A stretch of DNA of 64,000 nt from Candidatus Omnitrophota bacterium (GCA_021735045.1 JAIPHU010000001.1:4529-68528); one strand, 5' to 3'. Counted from the first letter of the stretch, positions 6,877 to 61,988 are shown. Notes: a model not told the origin generated them from the sequence alone. Program-made: numbers and translations.

Positions 6877-6967
6877 GATATCAACGAATTACAAATCAGT
6901 TACGAATATACGGATAAATATTTATAGAATTCGTAAATTAGTATGGATTCGTATGTTCGTTGATGGT
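6877..6967 (+). repeat. TACGAAT-rich palindromic intergenic element, copy 1 (inverted termini ATCAACGAA ... TTCGTTGAT)
   Basis: Two ACGAAT direct repeats in the left half and three ATTCGTA in the right half, bounded by an inverted ATCAACGAA/TTCGTTGAT pair. Sits directly upstream of rpsF. Confidence 0.5.
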
Positions 6968-6992
6968 AGAAAGTGACAAAAACGGAGGAAAT

Positions 6993-7346
6993 ATGGAGCG
7001 CAATTATGAATGCATGCTTATTTTAAGACCTGACTTACCAGAACCAGATAGAGAAAAAATTGCCGGTGAGATCGGGAAAAAAATTGAAGAGTTAAAGGGG
7101 CAAGTAAAGAAGTCTGTGCTATGGCGGAGTTTAAGAGACTTTCATTATTTTTTAAGAAGTAAAGGAGCCGAACGGACGAAATACTATAAGGGTTCTTATT
7201 GGTTGATTGAGTTTTTCTTACCTACAGAAAATCTTGATGAGTTAAAAGAAACGATAAGGCTTGAAGAAGGTATATTGAGAAGTCTTGTTTTGAATAAAGA
7301 GAGTGATAAGATTAAAATAGAACAGGAGAAAGTACAAGCTAGTTAA
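6993..7346 (+). CDS. rpsF: 30S ribosomal protein S6
   Basis: MERNYECMLILRPDL matches the S6 N-terminus, and GGAGG lies 6 nt upstream of ATG 6993. The ORF-track start at 6960 is probably too early. Confidence 0.85.
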   Translation: MERNYECMLILRPDLPEPDREKIAGEIGKKIEELKGQVKKSVLWRSLRDFHYFLRSKGAERTKYYKGSYWLIEFFLPTENLDELKETIRLEEGILRSLVLNKESDKIKIEQEKVQAS

Positions 7347-7379
7347 TTAGTAACTGGTTCATGGTTGATGGCTCACTCT

Positions 7380-7416
7380 GTATAGCGCAAAGCGCTTAGC
7401 GCTATGCACTTTGCTC
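7380..7416. repeat. GCGC-rich REP-like palindrome, copy 1 (GTATAGCGCAAAGCGCTTAGCGCTATGCAC)
   Basis: Nested palindromes ATAGCGC...GCGCTAT and AAGCGCTT. Near-identical reverse-complement copies at about 23800 and 50470. Confidence 0.45.
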
Positions 7417-7446
7417 TAAGCTAACTGTTAATAGGAGGGTTTATCA

Positions 7447-7869
7447 ATGGTAAGTTTGAATAAAGTATTTTTGGTAGGAAATTTAACTAGGGACCCGGAA
7501 TTACGTTATACCCCAGGAGGAACGCCGGTTGCTACTTTAGGATTAGCGGTAAATAGGACCTATAAAAGTAAAGATGGCCAAAATCAGCAAGATACTTGTT
7601 TTTTGAATGTGGTAGTTTGGAGTCAAATGGCAGAAGTTTCTAACCAATATCTTCAAAAGGGAAGCCCGGTTTTAATCGAAGGAAGATTACAGTCGCGGAG
7701 TTGGGAGAATTCAGAAAAACAACGCAGGACTACGATTGAAGTTGTGGCTAGTAGGGTGCAGTTTTTACCTCAGAGAAGATCTCGGGATCAAGAAGAACCA
7801 AAAGGAAAAGATACTGAAAAAGTAGTTAATTTAGATGATGAAGATAATAATCTAGGAGAGGCGATATAA
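7447..7869 (+). CDS. ssb: Single-stranded DNA-binding protein
   Basis: OB-fold N-terminus ([21 protein letters not shown]) and acidic C-terminal tail [11 protein letters not shown]. rpsF-ssb-rpsR-rplI synteny. Confidence 0.85.
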
Positions 7870-7870
7870 T

Positions 7871-8113
7871 ATGGCTAAAAAAAGTAAAAAAAGCAGACAA
7901 AAAATAACTCGTTTTAAAAAAAATTGCATATTTTGTAAAAAAGGATTAGAGATTGACTATAAAGATATAGATTTGATAAAAAGATATCTTACTAATCGAG
8001 GCAAAATAAAGTCACGCCGAATTACCGGAGTTTGTGCAAAACATCAACGTAAGTTAACCAAAGAGGTCCAAAGAGCAAGATTCCTGAATTTGGTACCTTA
8101 TGTAGTTAAATAA
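7871..8113 (+). CDS. rpsR: 30S ribosomal protein S18
   Basis: 80 aa with the conserved [34 protein letters not shown] motif. Confidence 0.9.
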
Positions 8114-8126
8114 GGGGGTCGATTTA

Positions 8127-8576
8127 ATGAAAGTTATTCTCTTAGATAATAACATGGAAAAGTTAGGAAAAGAGGGAGATGTTGTTGAAGTTAAAGACGG
8201 TTATGGCCGCAACTATCTTATTCCTAATAAGTTAGCTTTGTTAGCTACAAAAGCAAATTTAAAAAAAGTCGATCAGCTGAAACAAGAAAGAACCAAGAAA
8301 GAAGAAAAACAAAAACAGAGCTTGATGGATTTAAAAGATAAACTTGAAGGTTTGTCTCTGACAGTTACTACCGAAGCAAAAGACGATGACACCCTTTATG
8401 GTAATATCGGGCAGCTACAGATTATAAAATTGTTAAAAGAAAAGCAGGAAATAGAGCTACCCAAAGAGAAACTATCTTTACAAGAGCCTATCGATAAACT
8501 AGGTGTTTATAAGATCCCCATAAAGATAGATAAAGACCTAGAAGCAAATCTGCGCTTGTGGGTTGTTAGAAAATAA
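8127..8576 (+). CDS. rplI: 50S ribosomal protein L9
   Basis: MKVILLDNNMEKLGKEGDVVEVKDGYGRNYLIPNKLA is the L9 N-domain. Confidence 0.9.
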   Translation: MKVILLDNNMEKLGKEGDVVEVKDGYGRNYLIPNKLALLATKANLKKVDQLKQERTKKEEKQKQSLMDLKDKLEGLSLTVTTEAKDDDTLYGNIGQLQIIKLLKEKQEIELPKEKLSLQEPIDKLGVYKIPIKIDKDLEANLRLWVVRK

Positions 8577-8585
8577 AATAAGTTT

Positions 8586-9926
8586 ATGGATTTAGGAAAC
8601 CCCACTCAAAATATAAGCAAGATTCCTCCCCAAAACATTGAAGCAGAAATGGCCACTTTAGGGGCCATGCTTTTAAATGAAAAGGTCATCTCTGAAATTG
8701 TCGAGATCACTGATTCAGCTTTCTTTTATAAAAAAGAGCATAGAATAATTTTTGACACAATTATTGAGCTTTATGACAAACGGACAAAGATAGATGTTCT
8801 TACGGTTTCGGAAAGTTTGCGTAAAAAGAATGTTTTAGAAGAGGTTGGCGGGGCCGCTCAACTTACTGCTTTAGCTGATTTTGTGCCTTCTTCAGCTAAT
8901 GCCGCAAACTATGCACGTATTGTCAAAGAAAAAGGAATTTTACGATCTTTGATTGAAAATTCTTCTGAAATTATATCTTTAAGCTATAAAGGCCAAGAAG
9001 AAATAAGCGCTTTATTGGATAAAGCCGAGAAGTTAATCTTTGATATTAGTGATCGCCGAGTTGAAGGTGGTTATGTTCACATAAAAGATATAATTAAAGA
9101 TGGGATTGAGTTAATTGAGTCACTTTATCATAAAAAATCTCATGTGACAGGTGTTCCTACTGGATTTCGTGATTTTGATTTAAAAACTGCTGGGTTTCAA
9201 AAAGGTGATTTAATTATTGTTGCCGGTAGGCCTTCAATGGGGAAAAGTGCTCTGGTAACCTCTATCACTGGCCATGTCGCGATCAATAAAAAGATTCCTG
9301 TAGGTATTTTTAGTTTAGAGATGTCAAAGGAACAGCTTATGCAGCGCTTTTTATGTGCAGAAGCCAAGGTAGAAGTAAATAGGGTAAGAACCGGTTTTCT
9401 TTCTCCTTCTGAATGGCCTAGTTTAACTGCAGCGGCTGGTAAATTATCTGAGGCCCCGATTTATATTGATGATACACCAGCAATGAACATTTTTGAAATT
9501 AGAGCTAAGGCAAGAAGGCTTAAGGCACATCATGATATACAGCTTATTTTGGTTGACTATCTTCAATTGATTAGAGGGGCCGGTAGAACCGAAAGCCGTC
9601 AACAGGAGATATCAAAGATATCGCAAGGCTTAAAGGCTTTAGCTAAAGAGTTAAATATTCCTTTGATTGCAGTAAGTCAGCTTTCTCGAGCTGTTGAGTC
9701 TAGAGAAGGCCACAGGCCTAAACTTTCCGACTTACGTGAGTCAGGAGCTATAGAGCAAGATGCTGATCTAGTCGTACTTCTTTTTCGTCAAGAGTACTAT
9801 CAACCTGATGAAGAAAATAAAGGCATAGCTGAGGCGATTATTGCCAAACAAAGAAATGGCCCGGTGGGGACTATAAGTTTAGCGTTTTTAAAAGAATATA
9901 TGAGATTTGCTGATTTAGCAAAATAA
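8586..9926 (+). CDS. dnaB: Replicative DNA helicase DnaB
   Basis: 446 aa with the N-terminal DnaB domain (PPQNIEAEMATLGAMLL), Walker A GRPSMGKSA, and DnaB RecA-like motifs. Confidence 0.9.
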   Translation: MDLGNPTQNISKIPPQNIEAEMATLGAMLLNEKVISEIVEITDSAFFYKKEHRIIFDTIIELYDKRTKIDVLTVSESLRKKNVLEEVGGAAQLTALADFVPSSANAANYARIVKEKGILRSLIENSSEIISLSYKGQEEISALLDKAEKLIFDISDRRVEGGYVHIKDIIKDGIELIESLYHKKSHVTGVPTGFRDFDLKTAGFQKGDLIIVAGRPSMGKSALVTSITGHVAINKKIPVGIFSLEMSKEQLMQRFLCAEAKVEVNRVRTGFLSPSEWPSLTAAAGKLSEAPIYIDDTPAMNIFEIRAKARRLKAHHDIQLILVDYLQLIRGAGRTESRQQEISKISQGLKALAKELNIPLIAVSQLSRAVESREGHRPKLSDLRESGAIEQDADLVVLLFRQEYYQPDEENKGIAEAIIAKQRNGPVGTISLAFLKEYMRFADLAK

Positions 9927-9970
9927 AAGGGGGTTTGACTTTGGAAAATAAAGCGTCTATAATATTTTTT

Positions 9971-12262
9971 ATGAAAAAAATAGTTTTTACTTTTATTTTT
10001 TTAGGGTTATTGGTTATTTCTTTATCCGGCTATACTCAAGATGCAATTTCTCAGATTCAAATAGAGGGAAATGATCTAGTCAGTGACGCAAAGATAGTTT
10101 CGGAAATTAAAGTTAAAGCCGGCCAGCCTTTTAACGAAAATATAGTTAATGAAGATATCAAAAATCTTTATCAGACCGGATTTTTCCAAGAAGTATCTAC
10201 AGAAACTAAAAAAGGTGATCAGGGCTTGGTATTGATATTTAAAGTAAAAGAAAAACCAGTAGTAAATAAAATAACTATTGAAGGCCAAAGGTATATTCGA
10301 AAAAAACATATTCTTGATGAAATTAGCTTAAATGAAGGTAGCTTTGTTGATGATTATCGGATGAATCAGGCAGTTAAAAAAATTGAAGACCTTTATACTA
10401 AAAAAGGTTTTTCTCAGGCAGTAATAGACTATCAATTAATACCAACTCAAGACCAAAAAGTAGATGTTAAATTTAGTATAACTGAAAAAGGTGTAGTTAA
10501 GGTAAGATCAGTTAAGATTAAGGGAAATAAAAGTTTTTCTGATGATCGAATTAAGAAATTAATGAAAACTCGCAGGGCTTGGTTATTTAACAAAGGTATA
10601 TTTAAAGAAGAAGTGTTTGAAGATGACTTAAAAAGAATAAAAGGTTTTTATCAACATAATGGTTTTACCGATGTTTCTGTTGATTCAGAGGTTGATTTTA
10701 GAAAAAAAGGTGTTTATATAAATTTAACTATTAATCAAGGTAAAAAGTATTATATAGGAAAAATTGAGATTACTGGTAATAAAGAGATTGATACTGCAAA
10801 AATTCGTAAAAAATTAACAATTGCAAAGGGCGATGTTTTTAGTAAAGAAGCGGTTTATCAAGGCTCGTCTCAGATTAGGCAGCTGTATGTAGATAAGGGG
10901 TATATTTTTGCTCAAGCTGAACCGGTTAGTGTTTTGAATCCAGAGACAAAAAAGATTGATATAACTTATGATATTACTGAAAGCCATATTGCTTATGTTG
11001 AAGATATTCAAATAAAAGGAAACGAAAAAACAAAAGGTGAGGTTATAAGAAGAGAGTTAAAAGTTTATCCCGGCGAAAAGTTTGATGGTGAAAAAATGCG
11101 GGAAAGCAAGCAAGATTTAGAGAACTTGGGGTTTTTTGAAGATATAAGATTTCGAACTGAGCCTGGCTCAGAAAAAGATAAGGTGGACTTAGTTGTAGAC
11201 GTAACTGAAGCAAAAACTGGTTATTTTAGCTTTGGCGGCGGTTATAGTTCTATTGAAGAGTTTATTGGGTTTGTTGAGCTGCGTCAAAGAAATTTTGATT
11301 ATCAAAACTGGCAAACATTTACCGGTGCTGGGCAAGATTTGACTCTAAAAGCCAGCCTGGGAACGCTTACCAGCCGTTACCAGTTAAGTTTTACTAATCC
11401 TTGGATCTTTGATCAGCCGATATCTTTTGGTTTTGATGCTTACAAAAAAGGCCATGACCAGGATGATGATGTTGGTTATGCTTATTCAGAAGATATAACC
11501 GGCGGAGCTTTGCGTTTAGGCAAAGAATTTACCGATAAACTTAGCGGAAGAGTCCTCTATAGGTTTGAAAATGTAGATATCAGTGATGTAGTAAGTGATG
11601 CAAGTCAAGATTTAAAAGATGAAGCCGGCAGTAATAATTTAAGCAGCACTGAACTGTCGATAGCTTATGATACCAGAGATAACATTTTTTCACCGAGCAA
11701 AGGGGTTTATTTTTCTAATTCGCTGCAGTTAACAGGAAGTTTTTTAGGCGGAGACAAGAATTTTACAAAATTCTTTAGCAGATTAAGCCTTTATTTTCCT
11801 ATGGTCAATGATTCTGTGGTTGAGACCCGGTTTAAGGTAGGTTTTGCAGATCCATTTTCAGATACAGACAAGGTTCCTATTTATGAGCGGTTTTTTGCTG
11901 GAGGTGCCTCAACCATTCGAGGTTATCGGGAGAGAAAAGTAGGACCGATTGATAAGGGTAATAGTGACGATCCTCTTGGTGGTGAAGCTTTATTTGTAGC
12001 TAACTTCGAATACACTTATCCCTTAGCTGATTTTTTAAAGGTGGCAACCTTTTATGATATCGGTAATGTTTGGTCTAAAAACGATGATTTTTTTAAGGAT
12101 GAAGGAGGGCGTGAAGCTTTATATTCTAGTATAGGTATAGGCTTAAGAGTTAAGACTCCAATTGGGCCGGTAAGCGTAGACTATGGCTGGCCGTTAGATA
12201 AAGAACCGGGTGAAGATGGAAAAGAAGGTAGATTTCATTTTAGCGTAAGCAGAGGCTTTTAA
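9971..12262 (+). CDS. bamA: Outer membrane protein assembly factor BamA (POTRA domains plus 16-strand beta-barrel)
   Basis: Signal peptide MKKIVFTFIFLGLLVISLSGYTQ, repeated POTRA units, C-terminal barrel ending in F. Alternative upstream TTG starts at 9935/9941 are possible. Confidence 0.85.
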   Translation: MKKIVFTFIFLGLLVISLSGYTQDAISQIQIEGNDLVSDAKIVSEIKVKAGQPFNENIVNEDIKNLYQTGFFQEVSTETKKGDQGLVLIFKVKEKPVVNKITIEGQRYIRKKHILDEISLNEGSFVDDYRMNQAVKKIEDLYTKKGFSQAVIDYQLIPTQDQKVDVKFSITEKGVVKVRSVKIKGNKSFSDDRIKKLMKTRRAWLFNKGIFKEEVFEDDLKRIKGFYQHNGFTDVSVDSEVDFRKKGVYINLTINQGKKYYIGKIEITGNKEIDTAKIRKKLTIAKGDVFSKEAVYQGSSQIRQLYVDKGYIFAQAEPVSVLNPETKKIDITYDITESHIAYVEDIQIKGNEKTKGEVIRRELKVYPGEKFDGEKMRESKQDLENLGFFEDIRFRTEPGSEKDKVDLVVDVTEAKTGYFSFGGGYSSIEEFIGFVELRQRNFDYQNWQTFTGAGQDLTLKASLGTLTSRYQLSFTNPWIFDQPISFGFDAYKKGHDQDDDVGYAYSEDITGGALRLGKEFTDKLSGRVLYRFENVDISDVVSDASQDLKDEAGSNNLSSTELSIAYDTRDNIFSPSKGVYFSNSLQLTGSFLGGDKNFTKFFSRLSLYFPMVNDSVVETRFKVGFADPFSDTDKVPIYERFFAGGASTIRGYRERKVGPIDKGNSDDPLGGEALFVANFEYTYPLADFLKVATFYDIGNVWSKNDDFFKDEGGREALYSSIGIGLRVKTPIGPVSVDYGWPLDKEPGEDGKEGRFHFSVSRGF

Positions 12263-12323
12263 AGGATAAAGGTTAAAGGTAATTGAGGTATTCGCTAAAT
12301 AATAACATTTTTAATGGAGGTTT

Positions 12324-12830
12324 GTGATGAGAAAGTTTTTGGGGATTATTTTAGCAGCAGTAGTTGTTCTCAGTTTTAGTGTGTGTGGTTTTGCTGCAGA
12401 TTTAAAAATTGGTTATGTTGATACAATTGAAGTTTTTAATGAGTATCAAAGGACAAAAGAACAAGATAAACAGCTAGAAGCAAAAAAAGAAAAAGCTCAG
12501 GAAAGTTTAAAAACAAAAGAAAAAGAGATACAAAAGATACAAAGTAAATTAGAAGTATTAAAGGAAGACCAAAAAGAAGCAGAAAGAGCTAAGCTGCAAG
12601 AAAAGATGCAAGAATATAGAGATATACGCCAAAAAGAGTTTACCGACATAAAAAAAGAAAGAGATGAGATGATGAAAGAGATTATAGATGATATCGATCA
12701 AACAGTTAAGAATTATGCCAAGAAAAATAATTATGATTTAGTGGTTAATGGCAATAGTGTTTTATACGGCATAGAAAGTAAAGATTTGACCGACAAAATT
12801 CTTAAAATCATCAATAATAAATATAAATAA
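12324..12830 (+). CDS. skp: Periplasmic chaperone Skp/OmpH
   Basis: 168 aa with a signal peptide and K/E-rich coiled-coil. Conserved bamA-skp-lpxD position. Confidence 0.75.
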   Translation: MMRKFLGIILAAVVVLSFSVCGFAADLKIGYVDTIEVFNEYQRTKEQDKQLEAKKEKAQESLKTKEKEIQKIQSKLEVLKEDQKEAERAKLQEKMQEYRDIRQKEFTDIKKERDEMMKEIIDDIDQTVKNYAKKNNYDLVVNGNSVLYGIESKDLTDKILKIINNKYK

Positions 12831-12875
12831 AAAGACTAATTTTTACAGATTAAGCTAATAAAACTATTAAGATAG

Positions 12876-15211: not shown

Positions 15212-15215
15212 AATA

Positions 15216-15346: not shown

Positions 15347-15365
15347 GAGATAGAGAGCAAGCGAG

Positions 15366-16154: not shown

Positions 16155-16197
16155 TTTTAATTTATTTAGTAATTTTGCTTATCGATAAGGTATTTAT

Positions 16198-24594: not shown

Positions 24595-24704
24595 TCATCT
24601 ACGAATGTAGATAATCATCACCGAATATACGAATGATATTACAAATTTTCCTACATTCGTAATTGATTCGTAGGTTCGATGATTATCTTTGTAAATTCGT
24701 TGAT
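24595..24704 (+). repeat. TACGAAT-rich palindromic intergenic element, copy 2 (upstream of rplK)
   Basis: Bounded by ATCATCTACGAATG ... ATTCGTTGAT, with internal inverted pairs GATAATCATC/GATGATTATC and CTACGAATGTAG/CTACATTCGTA. Shares the TTACAAAT core with the other copies. Confidence 0.5.
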
Positions 24705-27140: not shown

Positions 27141-27212
27141 GTTCAATGTTCGACGTGCGACGTTCAACGTTATTTTTATAAAAAATATTAACGTAGAACA
27201 TGGAACATTGAA
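27141..27212 (+). promoter_or_regulatory. Long bipartite hairpin between rplL and rpoB: candidate attenuator or RNase III processing site
   Basis: GTTCAATGTTC pairs perfectly with GAACATTGAAC (11 bp), and inner GTTCAACGTTA pairs with TAACGTAGAAC (10/11), around an AT palindromic loop. There is no U-tract after it. Confidence 0.35.
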
Positions 27213-27244
27213 CGTAGAACAAAAACCAATAAAAGAGGAGATCT

Positions 27245-35005: not shown

Positions 35006-35097
35006 ATCAACGAATGTATGAATCAATTACGAATTTACAAATTTTTATGAACCCATATTCGTATATTCGTAGGGATTAGTAAAATCGTAGATGATAG
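35006..35097 (+). repeat. TACGAAT-rich palindromic intergenic element, copy 3 (between rpsL and rpsG)
   Basis: ATCAACGAATGTATGAATCAATTACGAATTTACAAAT ... ATTCGTATATTCGTAGGGATTAGTAAAATCGTAGATGAT. About 90% identical to copy 4 in the core. Confidence 0.55.
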
Positions 35098-35586: not shown

Positions 35587-35666
35587 GAAGATAGAAGTTA
35601 GAGGTTAGAAATTAGATAGAAGATAATTTTATTTTTGATATAAAAGTGAAGAATGCAAGTTTAGTT

Positions 35667-37733
35667 ATGGATAAAGAAAAGAGTTTAGCTAAGATTCGCA
35701 ATATTGGCTTTATAGCCCATATTGATGCAGGTAAAACTACGGTTACAGAAAGAATACTTTTTTATGCAGGTAGAACCTATAAGATTGGGGAAGTTCACGA
35801 AGGTACTGCTGTAACTGATTGGATGCATCAAGAAAAAGAAAGGGGTATTACTATAACTAGTGCCGCTACTTCTTGTGATTGGAAAAATCACCAGATTAAT
35901 ATTATTGATACTCCTGGCCATATTGATTTTACTGTTGAAGTCGAACGTTCTTTAAAAGTTTTAGATGGTGCAGTTGTTATTTTCTGCGGTGTTTCAGGAG
36001 TAGAGCCACAGTCAGAAACAGTTTGGCGTCAGGCAGAAAAATATGATGTTCCGCGAATTTGTTTTGTGAATAAGATGGATCGGGAAGGTGCTGATTTTTT
36101 TGCTGTAGTCTCTGAAATGAAGGAAAAATTTCAGATACCTATAGTTGCCTTGGAGTTACCGATTTATGATAACGATGAATTTAGAGGGGTAGTTGATTTA
36201 ATTGAAGAAAAAGCTTACTACTATGAAGGTAAATTAGGAGAAAAGATAAAAGAAGAAGAAATTCCAGAGAAATTAAAAGAGATTGTTGCTAATAAAAAAG
36301 AATTAATAATTGAAAAGATTGCAGAATTAGATGATGCCTTTATGAGTAAAGTTATTGAAGGAGAAAAAATTAAAAAAGAAGAGATAGTTTCTGCGATTAG
36401 AAAGTATGTTATTGGGAATAAGTTAGTTGCTGTATTTTGTGGTTCAGCTCTAAAAAATAAAGGAGTCCAACAACTCTTAGGTGCTGTTTGCAGCTATTTA
36501 CCGTCACCAACTGAGGTAAAACCGGTTTTGGCTAAAGTTGTTTCAAGTGATCAGGAAAAAGAAATCAAGGCTAGCCCGGGTGGGCCATTTTGTGCGTTAT
36601 GTTTTAAGATAGCAACAGATCCTTTTGTTGGTAAGTTGTTTTATGTGCGTATATATTCTGGTAGCATTGATTCAGCATCAACTATTTATAACGCAACTCA
36701 ACAAAAAAAAGAAAAAATAAATAAAATTGTAAAGATGCACGCCAACAAACAAGAAATTATAAAAAACGCTAAAGCTGGTGATATTGTTTGCCTGGCTGGG
36801 CTAAAGAATACAATGACCGGAGACACTCTTACAGAAAAAAAAGATCCGGTTATGATCGAAAATATAAAATTCCCTGAGCCAGTAGTATCTTTGGCTATTG
36901 AGCCTAAGACTAAAGCTGATCAGGAGAAGCTATTTGGAGCTCTGATGAAGTTAGCTGACGAAGACCCTTCTTTTAAAGTTACCTACAACCGGGAAACTGG
37001 ACAAAATGTTATATCGGGTATGGGGCAGCTTCATCTGGCAATTATGGTTGATAGACTATTAAGAGAATTTAATGTTAAGGCAAAAGTAGGTAAACCGCAG
37101 GTTGCCTATAAAGAAACTGTAAGCAAAAAGGTTCAGGCGACTGGTAAGTTTATTCAGCAAAGAGGTGGACAGGGCCAATATGGGCATGTTGAAATTGTTA
37201 TGACTCCATCTGGAGAAGGTACCGGGATTAGTTTTGAAAATAAAATTAAGTCAGGGGTAATTCCTAAAGAGTTTATATCTTCGGTAAAAGAGGGTGTGGT
37301 TGAAGCTTCTGAAAGTGGAATCTTAGGTGGGTATCCAGTAGTTGATCTAAAGGTTACTTTAATTGATGGTTCTTATCATGAGGTAGATTCTTCTGAATTG
37401 AGTTTTAAAATTGCCGGAGAGATAGCTTTTAAAGAAGGCCTGCGAAAAGCTAGATCGATACTACTTGAGCCAATTATGGATTTAGAAATTATTACACCGG
37501 TAGAGTATCTTTCTCAAGTAATTGGTGACCTTAATTCAAGAAGAGCAAAAATACATTTAGTTAAAGAAAGAAAAAATTTACGGACAGTTAGTGTTGAGAT
37601 TCCTTTAAGTGAATCTTTTAACTATGCAGATTCATTGAGGAACTTGACACAAGGCAGAGCCTCATATACAATAGAGCCTTCATATTATCAGAAGGTTCCT
37701 GAGGAATTGCTTTCAAAGATTTTAGGCATATAA
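35667..37733 (+). CDS. fusA: Elongation factor G
   Basis: [17 protein letters not shown]1 motif, DTPGHIDF, and domains II-V. Start chosen at [15 protein letters not shown]; the ORF track offers a GTG at 35646. Confidence 0.9.
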
Positions 37734-37750
37734 ATAGAATAGGCAATTGA

Positions 37751-37840
37751 TAAGCAGGAACAATCAACGAATGTACGAATCAATTACGAATTTACAAATA
37801 ATAAAATTCGTATATTCGTAGAGATTAGTAAATTCGATGA
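37751..37840 (+). repeat. TACGAAT-rich palindromic intergenic element, copy 4 (between fusA and tuf), flanked by 10-bp direct repeats GGCAATTGAT / GGCAATTAAT
   Basis: Inverted termini ATCAACGAAT / ATTCGATGAT. The core is nearly identical to copy 3. The flanking 9/10 direct repeat at 37741-50 and 37841-50 looks like a target-site duplication. Confidence 0.55.
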
Positions 37841-37880
37841 TGGCAATTAATAAAATGATTTTTATAAAAGGAGGTGCTTT

Positions 37881-39410: not shown

Positions 39411-39565
39411 ACAGCCCCAAACCAGAGTCGCCTTTGGCGACACGATTTAGGGCTGCCGTGAACCGTATTTATTCTGGTTTATGGCAGATGCACACAGATA
39501 AAATTACCGATAAACACAGATAAAATATCTGTGTGAATCTACTATAGATCTGTGTTTATCTGCGT
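39411..39565 (+). ncRNA. Structured intergenic element, family 2, copy B, between rpsJ and rplC, plus a 3' array of CACAGATAAA motifs in both orientations
   Basis: Identical 15-mer ACAGCCCCAAACCAG and ordered GGCTG / AACCGTA / TTCTGGTT / GGCAGAT / ACACAGATAAA blocks as at 15216. Internal hairpin GTCGCC-TTT-GGCGAC. Downstream palindrome ACACAGAT-AAAAT-ATCTGTGT. Confidence 0.4.
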
Positions 39566-39584
39566 GTAGGTTTTAGGAAAAAAA

Positions 39585-45923: not shown

Positions 45924-45966
45924 AACACAGATACACACAGATGAGATATAGATATACACAGATAGA
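45924..45966 (+). repeat. ACACAGATA motif array (3 direct copies) between rpsN and rpsH, related to the 3' part of the family-2 elements
   Basis: AAACACAGATACACACAGATGAGATATAGATATACACAGATAG. The same 9-mer recurs at 15336-46 and 39491-39562. Confidence 0.4.
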
Positions 45967-45990: not shown

Positions 45991-46386
45991 ATGAGTAGAA
46001 CTGATTTAATCGCAGATGCATTTACAATAATAAGGAACGCTACCAGGGCTAATAAAGAAGAAGCTTTTATACCTTACTCTAATAGTTTATCTAAGATATG
46101 CGAGATATTAAAAGATAATGAATATATTGCTAACTTTAAAGAAGCAGAAACTAAAAGTTTTAAACAAATAAAAGTGTATCTTAGCTATGATGGGAAGAAA
46201 AGTTCAATAACTCAAATCAAAAGAGTTTCTCGGCCATCGCGACGTATTTACAAGAAAAAAGATGATAATCTTTCAGTCTTAGGGGGGTATGGGTTGGCGA
46301 TAATTTCTACATCTAGCGGAATAATTACTGGTATTCAAGCTAAAACAAAAGGTTTAGGCGGAGAACTAATCGGGATGGTTTGGTAA
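45991..46386 (+). CDS. rpsH: 30S ribosomal protein S8
   Basis: MSRTDLIADAFTIIRNA is the S8 N-terminus, 131 aa. Confidence 0.9.
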   Translation: MSRTDLIADAFTIIRNATRANKEEAFIPYSNSLSKICEILKDNEYIANFKEAETKSFKQIKVYLSYDGKKSSITQIKRVSRPSRRIYKKKDDNLSVLGGYGLAIISTSSGIITGIQAKTKGLGGELIGMVW

Positions 46387-51401: not shown

Positions 51402-51422
51402 GATAAAATAATAGGAGAAAAT

Positions 51423-52052: not shown

Positions 52053-52079
52053 TTGCATTTTTAATGGGAGGAAAAAATT

Positions 52080-53066: not shown

Positions 53067-53069
53067 AAT

Positions 53070-53567: not shown

Positions 53568-53573
53568 ATTTAT

Positions 53574-54731
53574 ATGTCAATAAATCCTCAGGTTTTATCT
53601 TTAACAAAATCAGCTACCTTAAAGATTACTGCTTTAACTAAACAGATAAAAAAACAAGGCAAGGATGTTGTTAATTTTGCAGCTGGAGAGCCTGATTTTG
53701 ATACTCCAGATTTTATAAAAACTGCTGCCAAAGAGGCCATTGATCAAGGCTTTACTAAATACACACCTTCTTCAGGTGATAATCGATTAAAAGAAGCAAT
53801 TGCTAACAAATTAAAAGTTAACAATGGTATTTGTCTAGATAAAGAAAATGTTATCGTTACTTCTGGAGCAAAATATGCTCTTTTTATCGCCTTGTTATCT
53901 TTGCTATCAGTCGATGATCAGGTTCTTATACCGTCACCTTACTGGGTGAGTTATCCTGAGATGGCTAAGCTTACTTTGGGTAAAGCTAAGTTTATCGACT
54001 TAGCAGAAGAAAATAATTTTAAATTAACACCTGAGCTTTTAAATAATTCAATAACTAAAAAAACAAAAGTTCTTATTTTTAACTATCCTAGCAATCCTAC
54101 CGGTGTAACTTACAGTAAAAAAGAGCTCATAGATATTTCAAAAGTCATAAAAGATGCTAATATTTATGTAGTAAGTGATGAGATCTATGAAACTTTAGTG
54201 TATGATAAAAAGTCTCATATTAGCTTTGCTAGTCTAGACTCTATGCAGGATAAAACCTTGACCGTAGGAGGTTTTTCAAAAAGTTTTGCCATGACTGGAT
54301 GGCGGGTTGGTTATTTAGCAGCAAATAAAGATTTAGTGAAAGAAATTTCAAAGATTGTTGGCCATACTACTTCATGTCCCTGTTCTATATCCCAGGCGGC
54401 TGCTTTAGCAGCATTAGGTGATAATAAATGGCAGAGTCAGGTCGGTTTAAAGTTTGAAGCCAGAAGAGATTTACTTTATCAAGGATTAAGCAATACTCCT
54501 AAGGTAAAGCCGTTTAAATCGGAAGGAACTTTTTATATGTTTTGTGATATTAGGGAAACAGGCCTAAGTTCTTTTGAATTTTGCTCACGGTTGTTGGAAG
54601 AAGAACTTGTATCTTGTATACCGGCAAGTTCTTTCGGCAAAGAAGGTTTTATTAGAATTAGTTTTTCTACTAGTTTAAAACAGATAAAAAAAGGAATAGA
54701 TAGAATTAATAATTTTATCAAGAAACTTTAA
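53574..54731 (+). CDS. Class I/II pyridoxal-phosphate aminotransferase (aspartate aminotransferase-like)
   Basis: 385 aa. NFAAGEPDFDTP, the GFSKSFAMTGWRVGY PLP-lysine region, and N.PSNPTG. Confidence 0.75.
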   Translation: MSINPQVLSLTKSATLKITALTKQIKKQGKDVVNFAAGEPDFDTPDFIKTAAKEAIDQGFTKYTPSSGDNRLKEAIANKLKVNNGICLDKENVIVTSGAKYALFIALLSLLSVDDQVLIPSPYWVSYPEMAKLTLGKAKFIDLAEENNFKLTPELLNNSITKKTKVLIFNYPSNPTGVTYSKKELIDISKVIKDANIYVVSDEIYETLVYDKKSHISFASLDSMQDKTLTVGGFSKSFAMTGWRVGYLAANKDLVKEISKIVGHTTSCPCSISQAAALAALGDNKWQSQVGLKFEARRDLLYQGLSNTPKVKPFKSEGTFYMFCDIRETGLSSFEFCSRLLEEELVSCIPASSFGKEGFIRISFSTSLKQIKKGIDRINNFIKKL

Positions 54732-54818
54732 ACACGGAACACGAAATCCGAAATACGAAACAATTTTTAAATTATTAAGATTTCAGATTTGCTTCGAGCA
54801 TTCGAATTTATTTTAGAT

Positions 54819-56072: not shown

Positions 56073-56083
56073 GGAGGTTTTTT

Positions 56084-57130
56084 ATGCGAATAAATGATAT
56101 TTTAGAATTAGCTGAAACAAAGGGTGCCAGTGATATTCATTTTACAGTAGGACTTCCTCCGATTTTGCGAATAGATGGAGAGTTGATTATCACCGATCTG
56201 GAAACTTTAACTAAAGAGAGTTCTAAGTCATTAGTCTATAGTATGATTAACGATGAAAGAAAGGCTGCTTTTGAAAAAAATCGAGAATTAGATTTTTCAT
56301 TTACTTTACCGGATATGGACCGTTATAGGATAAACGTTCATTACCAACGAGGTAATGTCGAGGCAGCCTTAAGAAGGGTCCCTAAAAAAATTCCTTCAAT
56401 TGAATCATTAGGGCTGCCGGATATTGTTTTTGATTTAATAAAAAAACCAAATGGGCTAATTCTGGTTACCGGGCCAACTGGAACGGGAAAAAGTACAAGT
56501 TTAGCTGCTATGGTTGATTTTATTAACAAAAACAGAAAGGAACTTATTATCTCTATCGAAGATCCTATAGAGTTTGTCTATAAAAATCAAAAAAGTATTA
56601 TTAAGCAGAGGGAGGTTTTTGCTGATACACACTCTTTTCCTGAAGCTTTAAAAAGAGGTCTTAGGCAGGATCCAGACGTTATGGTTGTAGGAGAAATGCG
56701 AGATCTTGAAACAATTACAACTGCCTTGACTGCGGCTGAGACTGGCCACCTTGTACTTGCTACTTTGCATACACCAGATGCTCCCCAAACGATACAAAGA
56801 ATTATAGATGTTTTTCCCCCTCACCAACAAAGGCAAATAACAGTTCAACTTGCTGAAAGCCTACAGGCGGTTATTTCACAAGTTTTATTACACCGGGCTG
56901 AAAAAAAGGGAAGAATATTAGCTACAGAAGTAATGGTTTCAACTCCAGGAATAAGAAACCTAATCAGGGAAAATGATATCGCCCAAATTCCTTCTCTGAT
57001 TCAGATGGGTGGACAACACGGAATGTATACTATGGATAAGTGCCTAAAAACTTTTTATAAGAAAGGATTGATTACAAAAAAGGCAGCTTTAAGAAAAGTA
57101 AAAAATATAGCGGAGTTTAATAGCTTATAA
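56084..57130 (+). CDS. pilT: Type IV pilus retraction ATPase PilT-like
   Basis: ASDIHFTVGLPPILRIDGEL, Walker A GPTGTGKST, and the IEDPIEF / Asp box / His box of PilT. Inserted between leuC-like and leuD-like. Confidence 0.8.
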   Translation: MRINDILELAETKGASDIHFTVGLPPILRIDGELIITDLETLTKESSKSLVYSMINDERKAAFEKNRELDFSFTLPDMDRYRINVHYQRGNVEAALRRVPKKIPSIESLGLPDIVFDLIKKPNGLILVTGPTGTGKSTSLAAMVDFINKNRKELIISIEDPIEFVYKNQKSIIKQREVFADTHSFPEALKRGLRQDPDVMVVGEMRDLETITTALTAAETGHLVLATLHTPDAPQTIQRIIDVFPPHQQRQITVQLAESLQAVISQVLLHRAEKKGRILATEVMVSTPGIRNLIRENDIAQIPSLIQMGGQHGMYTMDKCLKTFYKKGLITKKAALRKVKNIAEFNSL

Positions 57131-57132
57131 AA

Positions 57133-57630
57133 ATGATTTTAAAAGGTAAACTATTTAAATTTGGTGATAATATCAATACCGATTGGATAATTTCTGGTCG
57201 GTATAAATTTTCTATTACTGATATGAAAGAACTTTCCCGTTATTTATTTGAAGATATACGCCCCAATTTTTATCAAGAACTTGTTGCTAATAAATCTATA
57301 ATTGCCGCCGGTAATAATTTTGGAATGGGATCTTCTCGTGAGCAAGCACCCTGGGTTATAAAAGAAGCCGGAGTATTAGTTGTAGTAGCTAAAAGTTTTG
57401 CTCGGATTTTTTATCGCAATGCATTTAATATTGGACTCGCCTTGATAGAAGCAGATACTGATTTACTAAAGGAATCTGATAGGATAAATATTGATTTAGA
57501 TAAAGGAAAAATTAAAAAAGAAGATAAACTAGTGTCTAAGTTTAATCCTTGGAATAATTTTCAAAAAGAATTGATAAAATCTGACGGAATTTTTAATTAT
57601 TTAGAAAAGCATAAAGGATTTTCAATTTAA
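57133..57630 (+). CDS. leuD: Aconitase-family dehydratase small subunit (LeuD-like)
   Basis: 165 aa; GDNINTDWIISGRY and GMGSSREQAPW swivel-domain motifs. Confidence 0.7.
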   Translation: MILKGKLFKFGDNINTDWIISGRYKFSITDMKELSRYLFEDIRPNFYQELVANKSIIAAGNNFGMGSSREQAPWVIKEAGVLVVVAKSFARIFYRNAFNIGLALIEADTDLLKESDRINIDLDKGKIKKEDKLVSKFNPWNNFQKELIKSDGIFNYLEKHKGFSI

Positions 57631-57632
57631 TT

Positions 57633-58721
57633 ATGAGTTATAAAGTTACACTTATACCTGGTGATGGTATTGGCCCAGAAGTTACTCAAGCTGCTTTAAT
57701 CTGTGTAGATGCTCTTGGCCTAGATATTGAGTGGGAAACAAAGATTGCTGGTAAAAGTTCAATGGATCAAGGCGGAGAATTGCTTCCTAAAGATACTATT
57801 GATTCGATTAAAAAGAATAAGGTGGCTTTAAAAGGGCCAATTACAACTCCGGTAGGTAGCGGTTTTCGGTCGATTAATGTTGCTATAAGACAGCTTTTTG
57901 ATCTATATGTATGCCTTAGGCCGATTAAATCTTTTAATAGTCCAAAGGCTTTGTATCAAGATATAGATCTAATAGTAATTCGTGAAAATACCGAAGATCT
58001 TTATGCAGGGGTAGAGTTTAAAGAGAAAGACTCAGATACAGATAAATTGATTGAGATTATAAATAAAACTGCGCAGAAAAAGGTTAGGCCGGGTAGTGCG
58101 ATATCTATTAAGCCAATATCAAGAAGTGCTTCAGAAAGGATTACAAAATTTGCTTTTGAGTATGCACTTGCTAATAAGCGAAAGAAGATTAGTTGTGTTC
58201 ATAAAGCAAATATTATGAAATATAGTGATGGACTTTTTCTAGATAGTTTTATCCAGATTGCCCAAAACTACAAAGATAAGATTGAATATAATGATGTAAT
58301 AGTTGATAATTTATCCATGCAGCTTACTCAAAGACCAGAAAATTTTGATATGCTAGTACTACCTAACCTTTACGGAGATATAATTTCTGATTTAGGAGCG
58401 GGGTTGGTTGGGGGCCTTGGCCTTGCACCAGGAGCAAATATCGGCCAAAATATAGCTGTATTTGAACCGACTCATGGAAGTGCTCCTAGGCATGCTGGGA
58501 AAAATAAAGTAAATCCTGCCGCTACAATTTTATCAGCAGCTTTAATGATCAAATATTTAGGAGAAACAGAGAAAGCAATAAAATTAGAAAAAGCTGTTGC
58601 TGCGGTAGTTAAAGAAGGTAAGTTTTTAACTTATGATTTAAAAGCTGACCGTAATGACCCTAGTGCAGCTACTACCCAAGAGTTTGCTGAAGCTGTGGCT
58701 AAAAAAATAAAAAGTTTCTAA
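57633..58721 (+). CDS. Isocitrate / 3-isopropylmalate dehydrogenase family protein (NAD-dependent)
   Basis: 362 aa; LIPGDGIGPEV, NLYGDIISDLGAGLVGGLGLAPGAN. Substrate (isocitrate vs isopropylmalate vs homoisocitrate) cannot be resolved from sequence alone. Confidence 0.7.
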   Translation: MSYKVTLIPGDGIGPEVTQAALICVDALGLDIEWETKIAGKSSMDQGGELLPKDTIDSIKKNKVALKGPITTPVGSGFRSINVAIRQLFDLYVCLRPIKSFNSPKALYQDIDLIVIRENTEDLYAGVEFKEKDSDTDKLIEIINKTAQKKVRPGSAISIKPISRSASERITKFAFEYALANKRKKISCVHKANIMKYSDGLFLDSFIQIAQNYKDKIEYNDVIVDNLSMQLTQRPENFDMLVLPNLYGDIISDLGAGLVGGLGLAPGANIGQNIAVFEPTHGSAPRHAGKNKVNPAATILSAALMIKYLGETEKAIKLEKAVAAVVKEGKFLTYDLKADRNDPSAATTQEFAEAVAKKIKSF

Positions 58722-58722
58722 A

Positions 58723-59613
58723 ATGATTAAAAAAATATCAATTATTGGAGCTGGAGGAGTAGGTTCCAATCTTGCCTTTAACATTTTAAATAATTTAAGT
58801 ATTGAACAGCTTGTTTTATTAGATATAAATCATGATCAAGCTAAGGCAGTTGCCTGTGATCTAGAAGATACTCGTGGTATCTTAGATTTTTCAACTCAGA
58901 TTAAAGGAGTTAAAAATTACTCAAAGATTAAAGATTCTGATATTGTTGTTTTTTCAGCAGGAATTCCTCGCAAGGAAGGGATGAGCCGTCTTGATTTGTT
59001 AAGAATAAATGCAGATATTGCTAAGGGGGCAGCTGCACAAATTAAAAAATATAGCCCAAAAAGCATTGTTATTGCAATAACTAACCCTTTAGATATTATC
59101 ACTTATTTAATTTTAAAAGAAACTAAGTTTTCTCCGAAAAAAGTTTTTGGAATGGGCTCTTCCCTGGATACAAGCCGTCTTCTTAATATTTTATCAAAAG
59201 AAACAGGAAAATCTGCTAGTTCTTGCCAAGCTTTTGTTTTTGGACCTCATAGTAAAGATATGATTGTTAATTCTACTGCCAGAAAGCAGAAAATTAGAAA
59301 AGGAACAAGAGAAACTGTTAAATATAGAGGAGCTAAGATTGTTAAGCTATTTAAAAATAAAAGTGCTGTTTTTGGCCCTTCGGTGGCTTGTTGTAAGTTA
59401 ATTGAGGCAATTAGCCATAATAAAAGTCAGATAATTCCAGTATCAGTATTGTTAAATGGTGAATATGGCATAAAAAATATTTGTTTAGGTGCTCGTTGTC
59501 TTATAGATAGATCAGGTATTGCCAAGGTAATCGAAGAAGATTTGACTGTGGCCCAAAAAAGAAAGTTAAAAAAAATTAGTTTTTCCCTCAAAGAAACCCT
59601 CAAAAAAATCTAA
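58723..59613 (+). CDS. mdh: Malate dehydrogenase (LDH/MDH family, Arg at the substrate-specificity position)
   Basis: IIGAGGVGSNLAF Rossmann, GIPRKEGMSR (Arg implies MDH rather than LDH), ITNPLD. Confidence 0.7.
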   Translation: MIKKISIIGAGGVGSNLAFNILNNLSIEQLVLLDINHDQAKAVACDLEDTRGILDFSTQIKGVKNYSKIKDSDIVVFSAGIPRKEGMSRLDLLRINADIAKGAAAQIKKYSPKSIVIAITNPLDIITYLILKETKFSPKKVFGMGSSLDTSRLLNILSKETGKSASSCQAFVFGPHSKDMIVNSTARKQKIRKGTRETVKYRGAKIVKLFKNKSAVFGPSVACCKLIEAISHNKSQIIPVSVLLNGEYGIKNICLGARCLIDRSGIAKVIEEDLTVAQKRKLKKISFSLKETLKKI

Positions 59614-59747
59614 CAGGAGTGGTTTAGTATTTTTTCTGTGCCGGCAAAAGCATTTGACAGCCTTTAGTTTTATCGCTACAATTATTCTTAAAAAAGGAGA
59701 TAAGCATCGTCAAAAAGCTTGTTATTTTTTTCTTTGTTTTTATTTGT

Positions 59748-60266
59748 TTGTCTATTTTTGAAAGTTTTGCTTTAGATAGTGTTGATGTTTTGTCAGGGTA
59801 TCTTGAGGCAAATTTAGAAGAAAAAGATGAATATCGGGCTATCCCTTTATTGGTAGGATTAAATTTTAACGGTAATTCTTTTTTTGAAAGGGTCGGTTTG
59901 GATTTACCGGGACGGGTTGATTTTATTCTAGAACCGTTTGTTAATACTGTAGTTAATCCAGATAAAAATATCGAAGTCGGGTCAAATTTTCTCATTAAAT
60001 ACACCTTAACTTTAACAAAAAAAGTTCAGCCGTTTGTAAAGGCAGGAGCAGGGGTAGTTTATATGAGTCAACACACAAAAGAGCAATCTACTCAATATAA
60101 TTTTTTGCCTCAGGCTGGAGGGGGAATTCAGTATTTTTTCAGTGATAGAGTTGCCTTAAATCTTGAATATCGTTATCGGCATCTCTCAAATGCTGGAGCT
60201 AAACATCCCAATAGCGGGATAGATTCGGATTTAATTTTATGTGGGTTGTCGTTTTATTTTAAATGA
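59748..60266 (+). CDS. PagL-like outer-membrane lipid A deacylase (start uncertain; see findings)
   Basis: Small beta-barrel (alternating hydrophobics, C-terminal F-Y-F-K). The H-x-S in RYRHLSNAG resembles the PagL His/Ser catalytic pair. The in-frame upstream sequence encodes a signal peptide but has no canonical start codon. Confidence 0.5.
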   Translation: MSIFESFALDSVDVLSGYLEANLEEKDEYRAIPLLVGLNFNGNSFFERVGLDLPGRVDFILEPFVNTVVNPDKNIEVGSNFLIKYTLTLTKKVQPFVKAGAGVVYMSQHTKEQSTQYNFLPQAGGGIQYFFSDRVALNLEYRYRHLSNAGAKHPNSGIDSDLILCGLSFYFK

Positions 60267-60715
60267 TAAAAAAAATAACAATCGATAAAGCTAAAGAAGT
60301 TCAGCGGTTGATAAACTCAGCAGCTCGAGAGGGACAAGTTTTGGAGAGGTCCTTAAACTATATCTATGAAAATATCAGAGATTTTCGGGTTTATAAAGAG
60401 GGAGAAAAGATAGTTGCTTGTTGTAGCTTACACGTTGTAGGCTGGCAGTCTTTAGCCGAGATAAAATCGCTAGTTGTTGACAAAGGTTATCGAAAAAAGA
60501 ATATTGGGAAAAAGTTAGTAGCGGATTCCCTTAAGGAGGCAAAAAGCCTAGGGGTATCTAAGGTATTTGCTTTGACTTTTTCTTCCCGGTTTTTTAAAAA
60601 ACAGGGTTTTAGCTTGATTGATAAAAATGATCTACCTCATAAAATTTGGACAGAATGCCTTAACTGTAAATATTTTCCGGATTGTAAAGAAGAAGCTGTA
60701 ATTATTAAAATATAA
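60263..60715 (+). CDS. GNAT family N-acetyltransferase (short ArgA-like)
   Basis: 150 aa; acetyl-CoA binding VVDKGYRKKNIGKKL. Overlaps the upstream gene by 4 nt. Confidence 0.65.
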   Translation: MIKKITIDKAKEVQRLINSAAREGQVLERSLNYIYENIRDFRVYKEGEKIVACCSLHVVGWQSLAEIKSLVVDKGYRKKNIGKKLVADSLKEAKSLGVSKVFALTFSSRFFKKQGFSLIDKNDLPHKIWTECLNCKYFPDCKEEAVIIKI

Positions 60716-60732
60716 AAATTAAGGAGGAAGCT

Positions 60733-61896
60733 ATGTTTCTTGTGGACCATAATTTAACTGAAGAGCAAAAAATGCTAAGAGATTTAGTTCGTCAAATAGC
60801 TGAAGAAAAAATTAAACCATTTTCAAGCCAGATGGATGAAAAAGAAGAATTTCCTACTGAAATCATGAAAGTTTTAGCCCAATCAGACTTATTTTCTTTA
60901 TGTATTCCTACTGAATACGGAGGTATGGGAACTGGACTTATGGATTTATGTATAGCTACTGAAGAAATTTCCCGTGTTGATGGAGGAGTTGCTGCTTCTT
61001 ATGCTGCATCTTTTTTAGGGATGTTTCCTATTCTTTTGTTCGGGACCCAAGAGCAAAAGAAAAAATATTTGCCGGCTATTGCATCAGGAGAAAAACTAGC
61101 TGCGTTTGCTTTAACTGAACCTGAGGCTGGTTCCGATGCTTCTGCGGTAAAAACTACAGCAAAGTTAGAAGGTGATTCTTATATTTTAAACGGAACAAAG
61201 CATTTTATTACCAATGGTGGAGATGCTGAAATTTATACAGTTATTGCAGCAACAAATAAAAAAAGAGGGGCACGCGGAATGTCTGCTTTTATTGTAGAAA
61301 AAGGTACAGAAGGATTTAATTTTGGCAAAAAAGAAGAAAAATTAGGTATTCGTGCTTCTTCAACCGGTGAGTTAATTTTTGATGATGCTAAAGTCCCTGC
61401 GAGCAATCTTCTGGGCCAACGAGAAGGCACTGGTTTTATTGCTACGATGAAGACTTTTGATCAATCAAGGCCAGGGGTTGCGGCTCAGGCAGTAGGAATA
61501 GCTCAGGGAGCGTTAGAGTCAGCTACCAGATATGCCCATCAACGCGTACAATTTGGCCAACCAATAACCTCTTTCCAAGGTATTCAATGGATGCTTGCTG
61601 ATATGGCAACAAAAGTTGAAGCTGCCAGAAGTCTTGTTTATTCTACTGCTTCTATGGTTGATAGAGGCCTGAAATCTGTAGGAGGTGCTTCTGCAGCTGC
61701 TAAGCTTTTTGCTTCAGATATTGCTATGGAAGTTACAACTGATGCCGTCCAGATCTATGGCGGATATGGATATATGAAAGAATATCCTGTAGAAAAGTTT
61801 ATGCGTGATGCTAAAATTACCCAGATTTATGAAGGAACGAATCAAATACAAAAAGATATTATAGCTTTAAACTTAATTAAAAAATACGCCAAGTAA
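60733..61896 (+). CDS. Acyl-CoA dehydrogenase (short/medium-chain type)
   Basis: 387 aa; AFALTEPEAGSDAS, YEGTNQIQ, and a catalytic Glu near the C-terminus. Confidence 0.85.
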   Translation: MFLVDHNLTEEQKMLRDLVRQIAEEKIKPFSSQMDEKEEFPTEIMKVLAQSDLFSLCIPTEYGGMGTGLMDLCIATEEISRVDGGVAASYAASFLGMFPILLFGTQEQKKKYLPAIASGEKLAAFALTEPEAGSDASAVKTTAKLEGDSYILNGTKHFITNGGDAEIYTVIAATNKKRGARGMSAFIVEKGTEGFNFGKKEEKLGIRASSTGELIFDDAKVPASNLLGQREGTGFIATMKTFDQSRPGVAAQAVGIAQGALESATRYAHQRVQFGQPITSFQGIQWMLADMATKVEAARSLVYSTASMVDRGLKSVGGASAAAKLFASDIAMEVTTDAVQIYGGYGYMKEYPVEKFMRDAKITQIYEGTNQIQKDIIALNLIKKYAK

Positions 61897-61988
61897 ATCA
61901 TTAGCGAATGTACGAATCTTTTGCGAATATACGAATAAGTATTATACTATTCGTAAATTCGTACAGATTAGTAAATTCGTAGATAAGG
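61897..61988 (+). repeat. TACGAAT-rich palindromic intergenic element, copy 5 (upstream of aroK)
   Basis: ATCATTAGCGAATGTACGAATCTTTTGCGAATATACGAAT ... ATTCGTAAATTCGTACAGATTAGTAAATTCGTAGAT. The GATTAGTAAATTCG block is shared with copies 3 and 4. Confidence 0.5.

Follow-up and report, generated by a model that had tools for sequence, protein, structure and literature searches.

Heptamer-armed hairpins in operon spacers of an Omnitrophota bacterium belong to a multi-phylum repeat family whose arms also bracket genes for a predicted nuclease

The intervening sequences (IVS) of 23S rRNA genes are small insertions of known design. The IVS of Coxiella, a selfish element, is closed by a terminal stem of 28 bp, carries an open reading frame (ORF) in its loop, and is excised by RNase III; tandem GACAGAT heptamers, variable in number between strains, stand directly before the start of the ORF (PMC4990558). 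A protein family that enters this account, GxxExxY/PF13366, is listed as being of unknown function and as having undergone multiple transfers (PMC3424549). We analyzed 64,000 nucleotides of a Candidatus Omnitrophota bacterium (GCA_021735045.1, JAIPHU010000001.1:4529-68528; this whole stretch is called the window, and positions are counted from its first letter unless a locus is named). An earlier note, made from the sequence alone, had described five TACGAAT-rich palindromes in the window and offered two explanations for them: a mobile element resembling a miniature inverted-repeat transposable element (MITE), or a lineage-specific promoter/operator cassette. We found that these palindromes belong to a family of heptamer-armed hairpins represented in several phyla, and that arms of the same kind elsewhere bracket small genes, most often for a predicted nuclease. 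The finding is real and broader than the earlier note held.

The five copies are as follows.

6877..6967, unstranded: copy 1, in the pth–rpsF spacer; imperfectly palindromic, its CGAAT-type units arranged ++--; RNA fold -23.8 kcal/mol, z -4.1
24595..24704, unstranded: copy 2, in the nusG–rplK spacer; the longest copy; RNA fold -32.1 kcal/mol, z -4.6
Part of copy 2: an outer layer, TCATCTACGAAT ... AAATTCGTTGAT, which encloses the inner hairpin and is extra relative to the other copies
35006..35097, unstranded: copy 3, in the rpsL–rpsG spacer; recognized by alignment, unit cluster, and RNA fold
37763..37841, unstranded: hairpin of copy 4, in the fusA–tuf spacer; recognized by alignment, unit cluster, and RNA fold
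61897..61988, unstranded: copy 5, in the spacer between an acyl-CoA dehydrogenase gene and aroK; RNA fold -29.2 kcal/mol, z -5.5

Pairwise identity among the five copies is 71–85% over 80–90 nt, and local alignment scores between copies (29–54) exceed those with shuffled partners (at most 20) and with other spacers of the window (7–17). TACGAAT occurs 22 times in the window compared to 6.1 expected, a count that no shuffle attained, and 19 of the 22 occurrences fall inside the five elements. Clusters of CGAAT/ATTCG are confined to these five places in 64 kb, always with CGAAT first and ATTCG second (++--, +++---, ++++---), and 16 kb more of the same contig held no additional copies. Five repeated palindromic elements at these positions are thus confirmed by sequence, mutual alignment, and shuffles, and they do align better than shuffled sequence, one of the checks named in the earlier note. 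Of its finer description, the inverted arms hold, but each arm carries about four TACGAAT-type 7-mers rather than two to three, the GATTAG of the right arm being a degenerate unit. The close kinship of copies 3 and 4 also holds, although the measured identity is 85% (70/82) and not about 90%. Copy 5 is the most regular, with four direct units (spacing 8/11/8), a short loop, and four reverse-complement units (8/10/8). Folded as RNA, the five copies reach -21 to -32 kcal/mol with z scores of -3.1 to -5.5. One MITE-type feature is therefore present: five short noncoding copies in 80 kb, every one with inverted arms.

The neighboring genes were identified through Pfam domains (rplK, rpsG, tuf) and NCBIfam (rpsF, aroK, pth, nusG, L11), in agreement with the placement of the elements just upstream of rpsF, rplK, rpsG, tuf, and aroK that had been proposed. 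All of the copies are flanked by co-directional operon genes, and all five share one orientation. The window contains no rRNA, and its copies separate protein genes. The analysis assigned the window to contig JAIPHE010000001.1 of assembly GCA_021735365.1, and among labeled S7 homologues the closest are those of Omnitrophota. Rfam at gathering thresholds returned only two tRNAs from the window, and permissive E-values over copies 3 and 4 gave nothing relevant. Nor did the element turn up in full-text literature searches, which covered exact 13–15-mers, GxxExxY, PF13366, and REP or IVS together with the phylum names.

To place the copies in a wider context, we scanned one genome per species with ATTCGTANATTCGTANNGATTAG, a right-arm pattern with 20 specified bases, and found at least 120 instances in at least 113 stretches. 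By the labels in the titles of the records, which are metagenome-assembled genomes (MAGs), the matches listed comprise 27 Omnitrophota, 43 Patescibacteria, 40 Bacteroidota, and 3 unlabeled stretches; the counts of orientation, neighbors, and placement given below likewise refer to the matches listed. Some of these lie on contigs of 0.15–1.7 Mb (Bacteroidetes scaffolds of 1.74 Mb and 0.72 Mb, Patescibacteria contigs of 152 kb and 365 kb), so binning error cannot account for the cross-phylum spread. Going by these labels, a near-identical element is present in at least three distant bacterial phyla, and the lineage specificity considered in the earlier note has to be given up. Most of the Omnitrophota and Patescibacteria instances are complete hairpins with a loop of 0 to about 60 nt, and many of the Bacteroidota instances are solo arms, unable to fold. 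Some loci have 1.5-mers, or unit runs of up to ten. The matches almost never fall inside ORFs; tight distances between element and ORF end were not used as evidence, because they are partly an artifact of units that contain stop codons. The pattern was not found in viral contigs, and a phage origin was rejected.

Three groups of instances differ from the common form. In a Saccharibacteria MAG (binchicken_co38_519; L008, L055, L065), eight near-identical copies, alike in their loops too, stand between ribosomal protein genes; each spans the spacer from stop to start exactly, and its end gives the AGGAG of the next gene. In the Omnitrophota MAGs AUK068 and 4484_213 (L014, L015, L028, L034, L045, L047, L057, L072, L092, L107), the TACGAAT hairpins are enclosed on either side by a further layer of CAATTAG/ACATTAG units (TCAATTAGACATTAGAGCAATTAGAAATT is one example), which makes larger composite palindromes. 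In a Bacteroidota MAG (L010, 1350-2140), the left and right arms lie about 730 nt apart around an ordinary-looking gene of 218 aa, which by eye we take to resemble orotate phosphoribosyltransferase; a host gene can thus come to lie between arms, whether by chance or as part of a composite.

The strongest clue to the nature of the family came from gene-carrying relatives. At two Patescibacteria loci (L061, L051), the ORF that stands directly between the TACGAAT arms is about 130 aa long and encodes a GxxExxY protein (TIGR04256, E 1e-27 to 1e-31; PF13366, PDDEXK_3). Scanning metagenomes with an alignment of GxxExxY proteins yielded 80 loci, 71 of them distinct, and at most of these about 71 loci four direct 7-mers end a few nucleotides from the start codon and four reverse-complement 7-mers follow just past the stop. 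The unit type (TACGAAT, TACAAAT, TACTAAT, TACGAAA, TACGGAT, TACAGAT, CTCTAAT, and others) is specific to the locus, and the two arms of a locus agree: the mean duplex energy of a cassette's own arms is -33.7 kcal/mol, compared to -15.7 for shuffled arms and -22.6 for arms of different loci. Unit type also tracks protein similarity, with the nearest neighbor carrying the same unit in 33 of 57 cases against 12.1 expected; none of 2000 permutations attained the observed difference. Compared with the cassette arms, each of the five window copies has its highest score with one cassette (L143), and the arms of copy 5 are identical to those of the L143 GxxExxY gene at 35/40 and 32/36 positions. The window copies are thus members of the same family and share their arms with the cassettes.

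A second kind of cargo surfaced in a generic scan for cargo by flank complementarity, which was otherwise too noisy: in a Saccharibacteria locus (L086), a four-helix-bundle gene of the 23S rRNA IVS family (TIGR02436) is bracketed by CACAAAT/ATTTGTG arms. In the same locus a GxxExxY gene with TCCGAAT arms and the TIGR02436 gene with CACAAAT arms (4326-4691, 5305-5673) lie less than 1 kb apart. As to the GxxExxY protein, an AlphaFold model is confident (pLDDT 91.4), the fold is that of a PD-(D/E)XK nuclease, and D75, E85, and K87, invariant in 38 homologues, fit an active site of that type; a sequence search of solved structures gave no match. A transposase or a REP-associated tyrosine transposase (RAYT) was also considered as partner and rejected: the 1,018 ORFs of 113 loci clustered into housekeeping families only, with no recurrent transposase-like family, and the bracketed genes are GxxExxY/PF13366 and TIGR02436.

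Cassettes and gene-less copies differ in how they are placed. Arm polarity is fixed relative to the cassette ORF, and the host gene upstream runs in the same direction as a gene-carrying cassette in 62 of 66 cases, the downstream one in 55 of 57, and both in 47 of 50. Copies matched by the pattern that have an ORF on each side, by comparison, lie along both neighboring genes 35 times and against both 37 times, with 9 more between divergent and 7 between convergent genes. Cassettes are thus strictly sense while gene-less copies are unbiased. On the simplest reading, the cassette gene relies on transcription reading through from the host operon, and the hairpin itself would have no strand-specific role. 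At six Patescibacteria loci (L127, L144, L151, L173, L186, L188), full GxxExxY cassettes with various units lie between a putative S7 end and a putative elongation factor G (EF-G) start. If these readings of the sequence ends are correct, the str operon would be a recurrent site for the gene-carrying form too.

The orientation counts also bear on the promoter/operator explanation. That the elements are lineage-specific promoter cassettes, giving internal promoters before rpsF, rplK, rpsG, tuf, and aroK, was suggested by their placement directly before genes for which model organisms possess internal promoters, as the earlier note pointed out, and it agrees with the single orientation of the five window copies. 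Yet across the family the orientation relative to co-directional genes is even, the family is not restricted to a lineage, the corresponding sites of relatives are empty (see below), and no sigma-70-like hexamer pair was found within copies 2–4. The best tuf-proximal site lies upstream of copy 4, inside fusA, and we regard the promoter reading as already contradicted by the present data and scarcely credible. The site in question, TTGACA-17-TACAAT (11/12 of the consensus), stands at 37644-37672 in the 3' end of fusA and by its sequence could be an internal tuf promoter, which would put copy 4 in the tuf leader.

The unit arrays might instead be double-stranded DNA sites of an oligomeric binding protein, a regulator or nucleoid protein, with the elements serving as operators that co-regulate their neighbors. 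This would suit the observations that conservation resides in the 7-mer unit and in how the units are spaced rather than in continuous pairing, that inverted arrays look like multi-site operators, and that four of the five window copies stand before translation genes. Against it, the 150 flanking ORFs tested spread over 230 Pfam families that share no theme, convergent genes surround 7 of the copies, cassette arms enclose a whole gene, several unit families occur side by side in one window, and elements are lacking at orthologous sites of close relatives; no candidate regulator recurs beside the copies among the 1,018 ORFs. We therefore consider operators very unlikely. The association with translation genes survives as a bias: flanking ORFs similar to the translation-cluster genes of the window number 25 of 95 in Patescibacteria, 7 of 50 in Omnitrophota, and none of 76 in Bacteroidota, so the link to translation operons is lineage-dependent and not a defining property. 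Taken together, the even orientation, the convergent placements, the diverse neighbors, the empty orthologous junctions, and the missing internal sigma-70-like site speak against a promoter/operator cassette. The element behaves unlike a promoter or operator and looks like a widespread selfish repeat.

The earlier note had proposed a check for empty orthologous sites, and we compared the str-operon region in genus- to family-level relatives, whose S7 proteins are 98% (L052), 97% (L115/L116), 88% (L117), 73% (L118), and 70% (L119) identical to that of the window. At rpsL–rpsG, an orthologous copy 3 is present in L052 and L073, and the spacers of L117 (10 nt) and L118 (14 nt) are short and hairpin-less. 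At fusA–tuf, copy 4 is found only in the window and is absent from L052, L115/L116, L117, and L118; the spacers of L052 (about 53 nt) and L118 (25 nt) do without it. The nusG–rplK junction is 7 nt in L118. Presence/absence polymorphism thus exists at all three junctions. In L115, the rpsL–rpsG spacer holds another hairpin with ATGTGTA/TACACAT units (L115 7343-7470), and its fusA–tuf spacer holds five tandem TTCGGAT units (L115 10150-10208), which indicates that one unit family can take the place of another at a given junction. The MITE-like explanation comes closer than the promoter/operator one, though it is only partly right: multi-copy intergenic inverted repeats, insertion polymorphism, and a gene-bearing counterpart support it, and no family-wide sign of a target duplication was seen.

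From these observations we think it fairly probable that the window copies are gene-less miniatures, IVS-like or like doublets of repetitive extragenic palindromic (REP) sequences (REPINs), of the arm-bracketed cassettes: selfish or near-neutral intergenic repeats that prefer operons and are gained and lost. A cassette consists of two inverted arms of about four 7-mers each around a gene of about 125 aa, usually for a predicted GxxExxY PD-(D/E)XK nuclease and sometimes for a 23S rRNA IVS-type four-helix-bundle protein. In this model, upon co-transcription with the operon, the arms would pair as an interrupted stem of about 30 bp, which the cell would tolerate and RNase III would probably cleave, by analogy with rRNA intervening sequences; either cutting or plain tolerance of the stem would render insertions harmless inside essential operons. 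The nuclease may recognize the unit arrays and drive copying, by homing or by transposition without regular target duplication. A bolder reading is that the heptamer hairpins are the ends of an unrecognized, cross-phylum class of mobile cassettes, in which the GxxExxY nuclease reads the 7-mer arrays (it might do so in hairpin or cruciform form) and drives copying without regular target duplication, the operon-spacer hairpins and possibly the rRNA intervening sequences being its nonautonomous or cargo-swapped members. We offer this tentatively and hold it to be possible rather than probable.

Several points weigh against gene-less miniatures of selfish cassettes. The bases between units form Watson-Crick pairs in 22 of 99 cases compared to 34.6 expected, with T·T and A·A the commonest combinations; inter-unit positions thus do not covary, which indicates that pairing of the whole stem is not conserved and that the stem may not be the selected feature. 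Two sets of hairpins (124 and 110) and a set of 57 cassettes showed no excess of flanking direct repeats; since indels set the arms apart, hairpin boundaries for this test were taken from folds. A GxxExxY or four-helix-bundle gene was sought in the window, in the additional 16 kb of its contig, and in Omnitrophota loci totaling about 200 kb, and none was found, so that a partner in the genome of the window would be hypothetical, and the labeled homologues of the closest cassette protein are all from Patescibacteria except for one from Pacearchaeota. None of 60 cassettes scanned lies inside an rRNA gene, and the link to the IVS is therefore one of architecture. The phylum assignments, in turn, are taken from the MAG records. 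Finally, the direction of derivation could be the reverse, with the hairpins primary and the genes secondary insertions.

This last point leads to a different explanation, in which the hairpins are host intercistronic RNA elements under selection, acting as RNase III processing or stability sites through which adjoining cistrons are expressed independently, and the cargo genes are parasites that insert into their loops. The strong folds, the position of all window copies between co-directional operon genes, the over-representation of translation operons in Patescibacteria and Omnitrophota, and the Saccharibacteria copies that exactly fill their spacers and provide the AGGAG of the next gene are all as such elements would predict, as is the use of the same arm type by two unrelated cargo families. 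Orthologous junctions manage with hairpin-less spacers of 7–25 nt, however, and convergent and divergent placements exist; the Bacteroidota copies have no translation-cluster neighbors and many are solo arms. Sequence identity across phyla would not be expected of a purely structural RNA, the inter-unit bases lack covariation, and the unit type follows the cargo protein. We consider host RNA elements unlikely on balance and favor the gene-less miniatures described above.

The earlier note had read a 9/10 direct repeat around copy 4 as a target-site duplication. The repeat is real, and longer than stated, with an 11/12 match between its two sides.

37742..37753, + strand: left direct repeat GGCAATTGATAA, flanking copy 4, with a 9-nt linker gcaggaaca (37754-37762) before the hairpin
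37842..37853, + strand: right direct repeat GGCAATTAATAA, abutting the copy 4 hairpin without a gap

Among 110 hairpins, the sole other 12-nt flanking repeat (11/12) belongs to a copy-4-like element of the sister MAG L030. The linker of this element, gtagaaaca, resembles that of copy 4, and tblastn places the element at a locus unrelated to fusA–tuf. The empty fusA–tuf site of L052 contains a single similar motif, TTAATCAATAA. Given the 12-nt repeats at copy 4 and in L030 and the single motif in L052, duplication upon insertion is plausible for a young copy-4 subfamily, and it is no general property of the family.

The window holds other heptamer hairpins and arrays.

27141..27228, unstranded: hairpin in the rplL–rpoB spacer; GTTCAAC-type 7-mers, about four per arm; period 7 by Tandem Repeats Finder (TRF); fold -27.9 kcal/mol, z -5.1
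39484..39569, unstranded: hairpin in the rpsJ–rplC spacer; CACAGAT-type units; detected by TRF; fold -33.9 kcal/mol, z -6.5
45925-45964: one-sided CACAGAT-type array, just upstream of an ORF starting at 45991
35590-35625: one-sided array in the rpsG–fusA spacer; GTTAGAG/GTTAGAA/ATTAGAT
54731-54762: one-sided array in a spacer; ACACGGA/ACACGAA/ATCCGAA/ATACGAA

The rplL–rpoB and rpsJ–rplC hairpins have the same design as the TACGAAT element but other units. The arrays at 35590-35625 and 54731-54762 have no convincing inverted partner and may be solo arms or decayed elements.

These results provide a first genomic context and a testable role for the large GxxExxY/PF13366 family, and they link it architecturally to the long-unexplained rRNA intervening sequences. 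They also reveal that the compact genomes of Patescibacteria and Omnitrophota carry dense, fast-turnover hairpin repeats in their most conserved operons. For annotation, they are a warning: conserved-looking palindromes before ribosomal genes here are not regulatory cassettes.

Three known systems invite comparison. Like MITEs (Correia, RUP, ERIC, BOX), the elements are short, noncoding, multi-copy, and intergenic or co-transcribed, with terminal inverted repeats and polymorphic insertions. They differ in that no fixed-length target-site duplication was seen across the family, the data analyzed yielded no DDE transposase partner, and slippage has apparently made both loop length and unit number variable. 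Gene-carrying relatives with the same arms exist; their protein is a predicted nuclease, and no such relative was found in Omnitrophota.

In comparison to the 23S rRNA IVS of Coxiella burnetii, Leptospira, and Salmonella, the window copies sit in mRNA spacers and not in rRNA helices, none of the 60 GxxExxY cassettes scanned is in rRNA, the main cargo is a predicted PD-(D/E)XK nuclease, and there are many copies per genome. In other respects the likeness is close. Both are small, apparently selfish insertions with a stem of about 28 bp formed by terminal inverted repeats, both have a loop with a small ORF (of the S23p four-helix-bundle family in the IVS) or, in short versions, nothing, and both are patchily distributed and reside in highly transcribed operons. 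The design described for the IVS (PMC4990558), in which a stem of about 28 bp encloses either a small ORF or a short loop and heptamers adjoin the ORF, was found here as well, and a four-helix-bundle gene with heptamer arms is itself present (L086). The CACAGAT units of the rpsJ–rplC hairpin may be compared to the TACAGAT arms of two GxxExxY genes (L170, L198) and to the GACAGAT heptamers of the Coxiella IVS (PMC4990558).

The arms described here are arrays of 7-mers, unlike the single palindrome of 20–40 nt that makes up a REP sequence, and the bracketed protein has a predicted PD-(D/E)XK fold and is not an HUH/Y1 transposase; no recurrent RAYT-like family appeared among the matches listed. 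REP families are species-specific, whereas this element, by its record labels, is near-identical in at least three phyla. The parallels with REP/REPIN–RAYT systems are nonetheless extensive: both form extragenic palindromic hairpin doublets that are orientation-neutral and frequent in operons, both occur in solo and doublet forms, and neither shows a regular target duplication. In both, one small partner gene lies between inverted repeats, and the variant of the repeat is paired with the variant of the protein.

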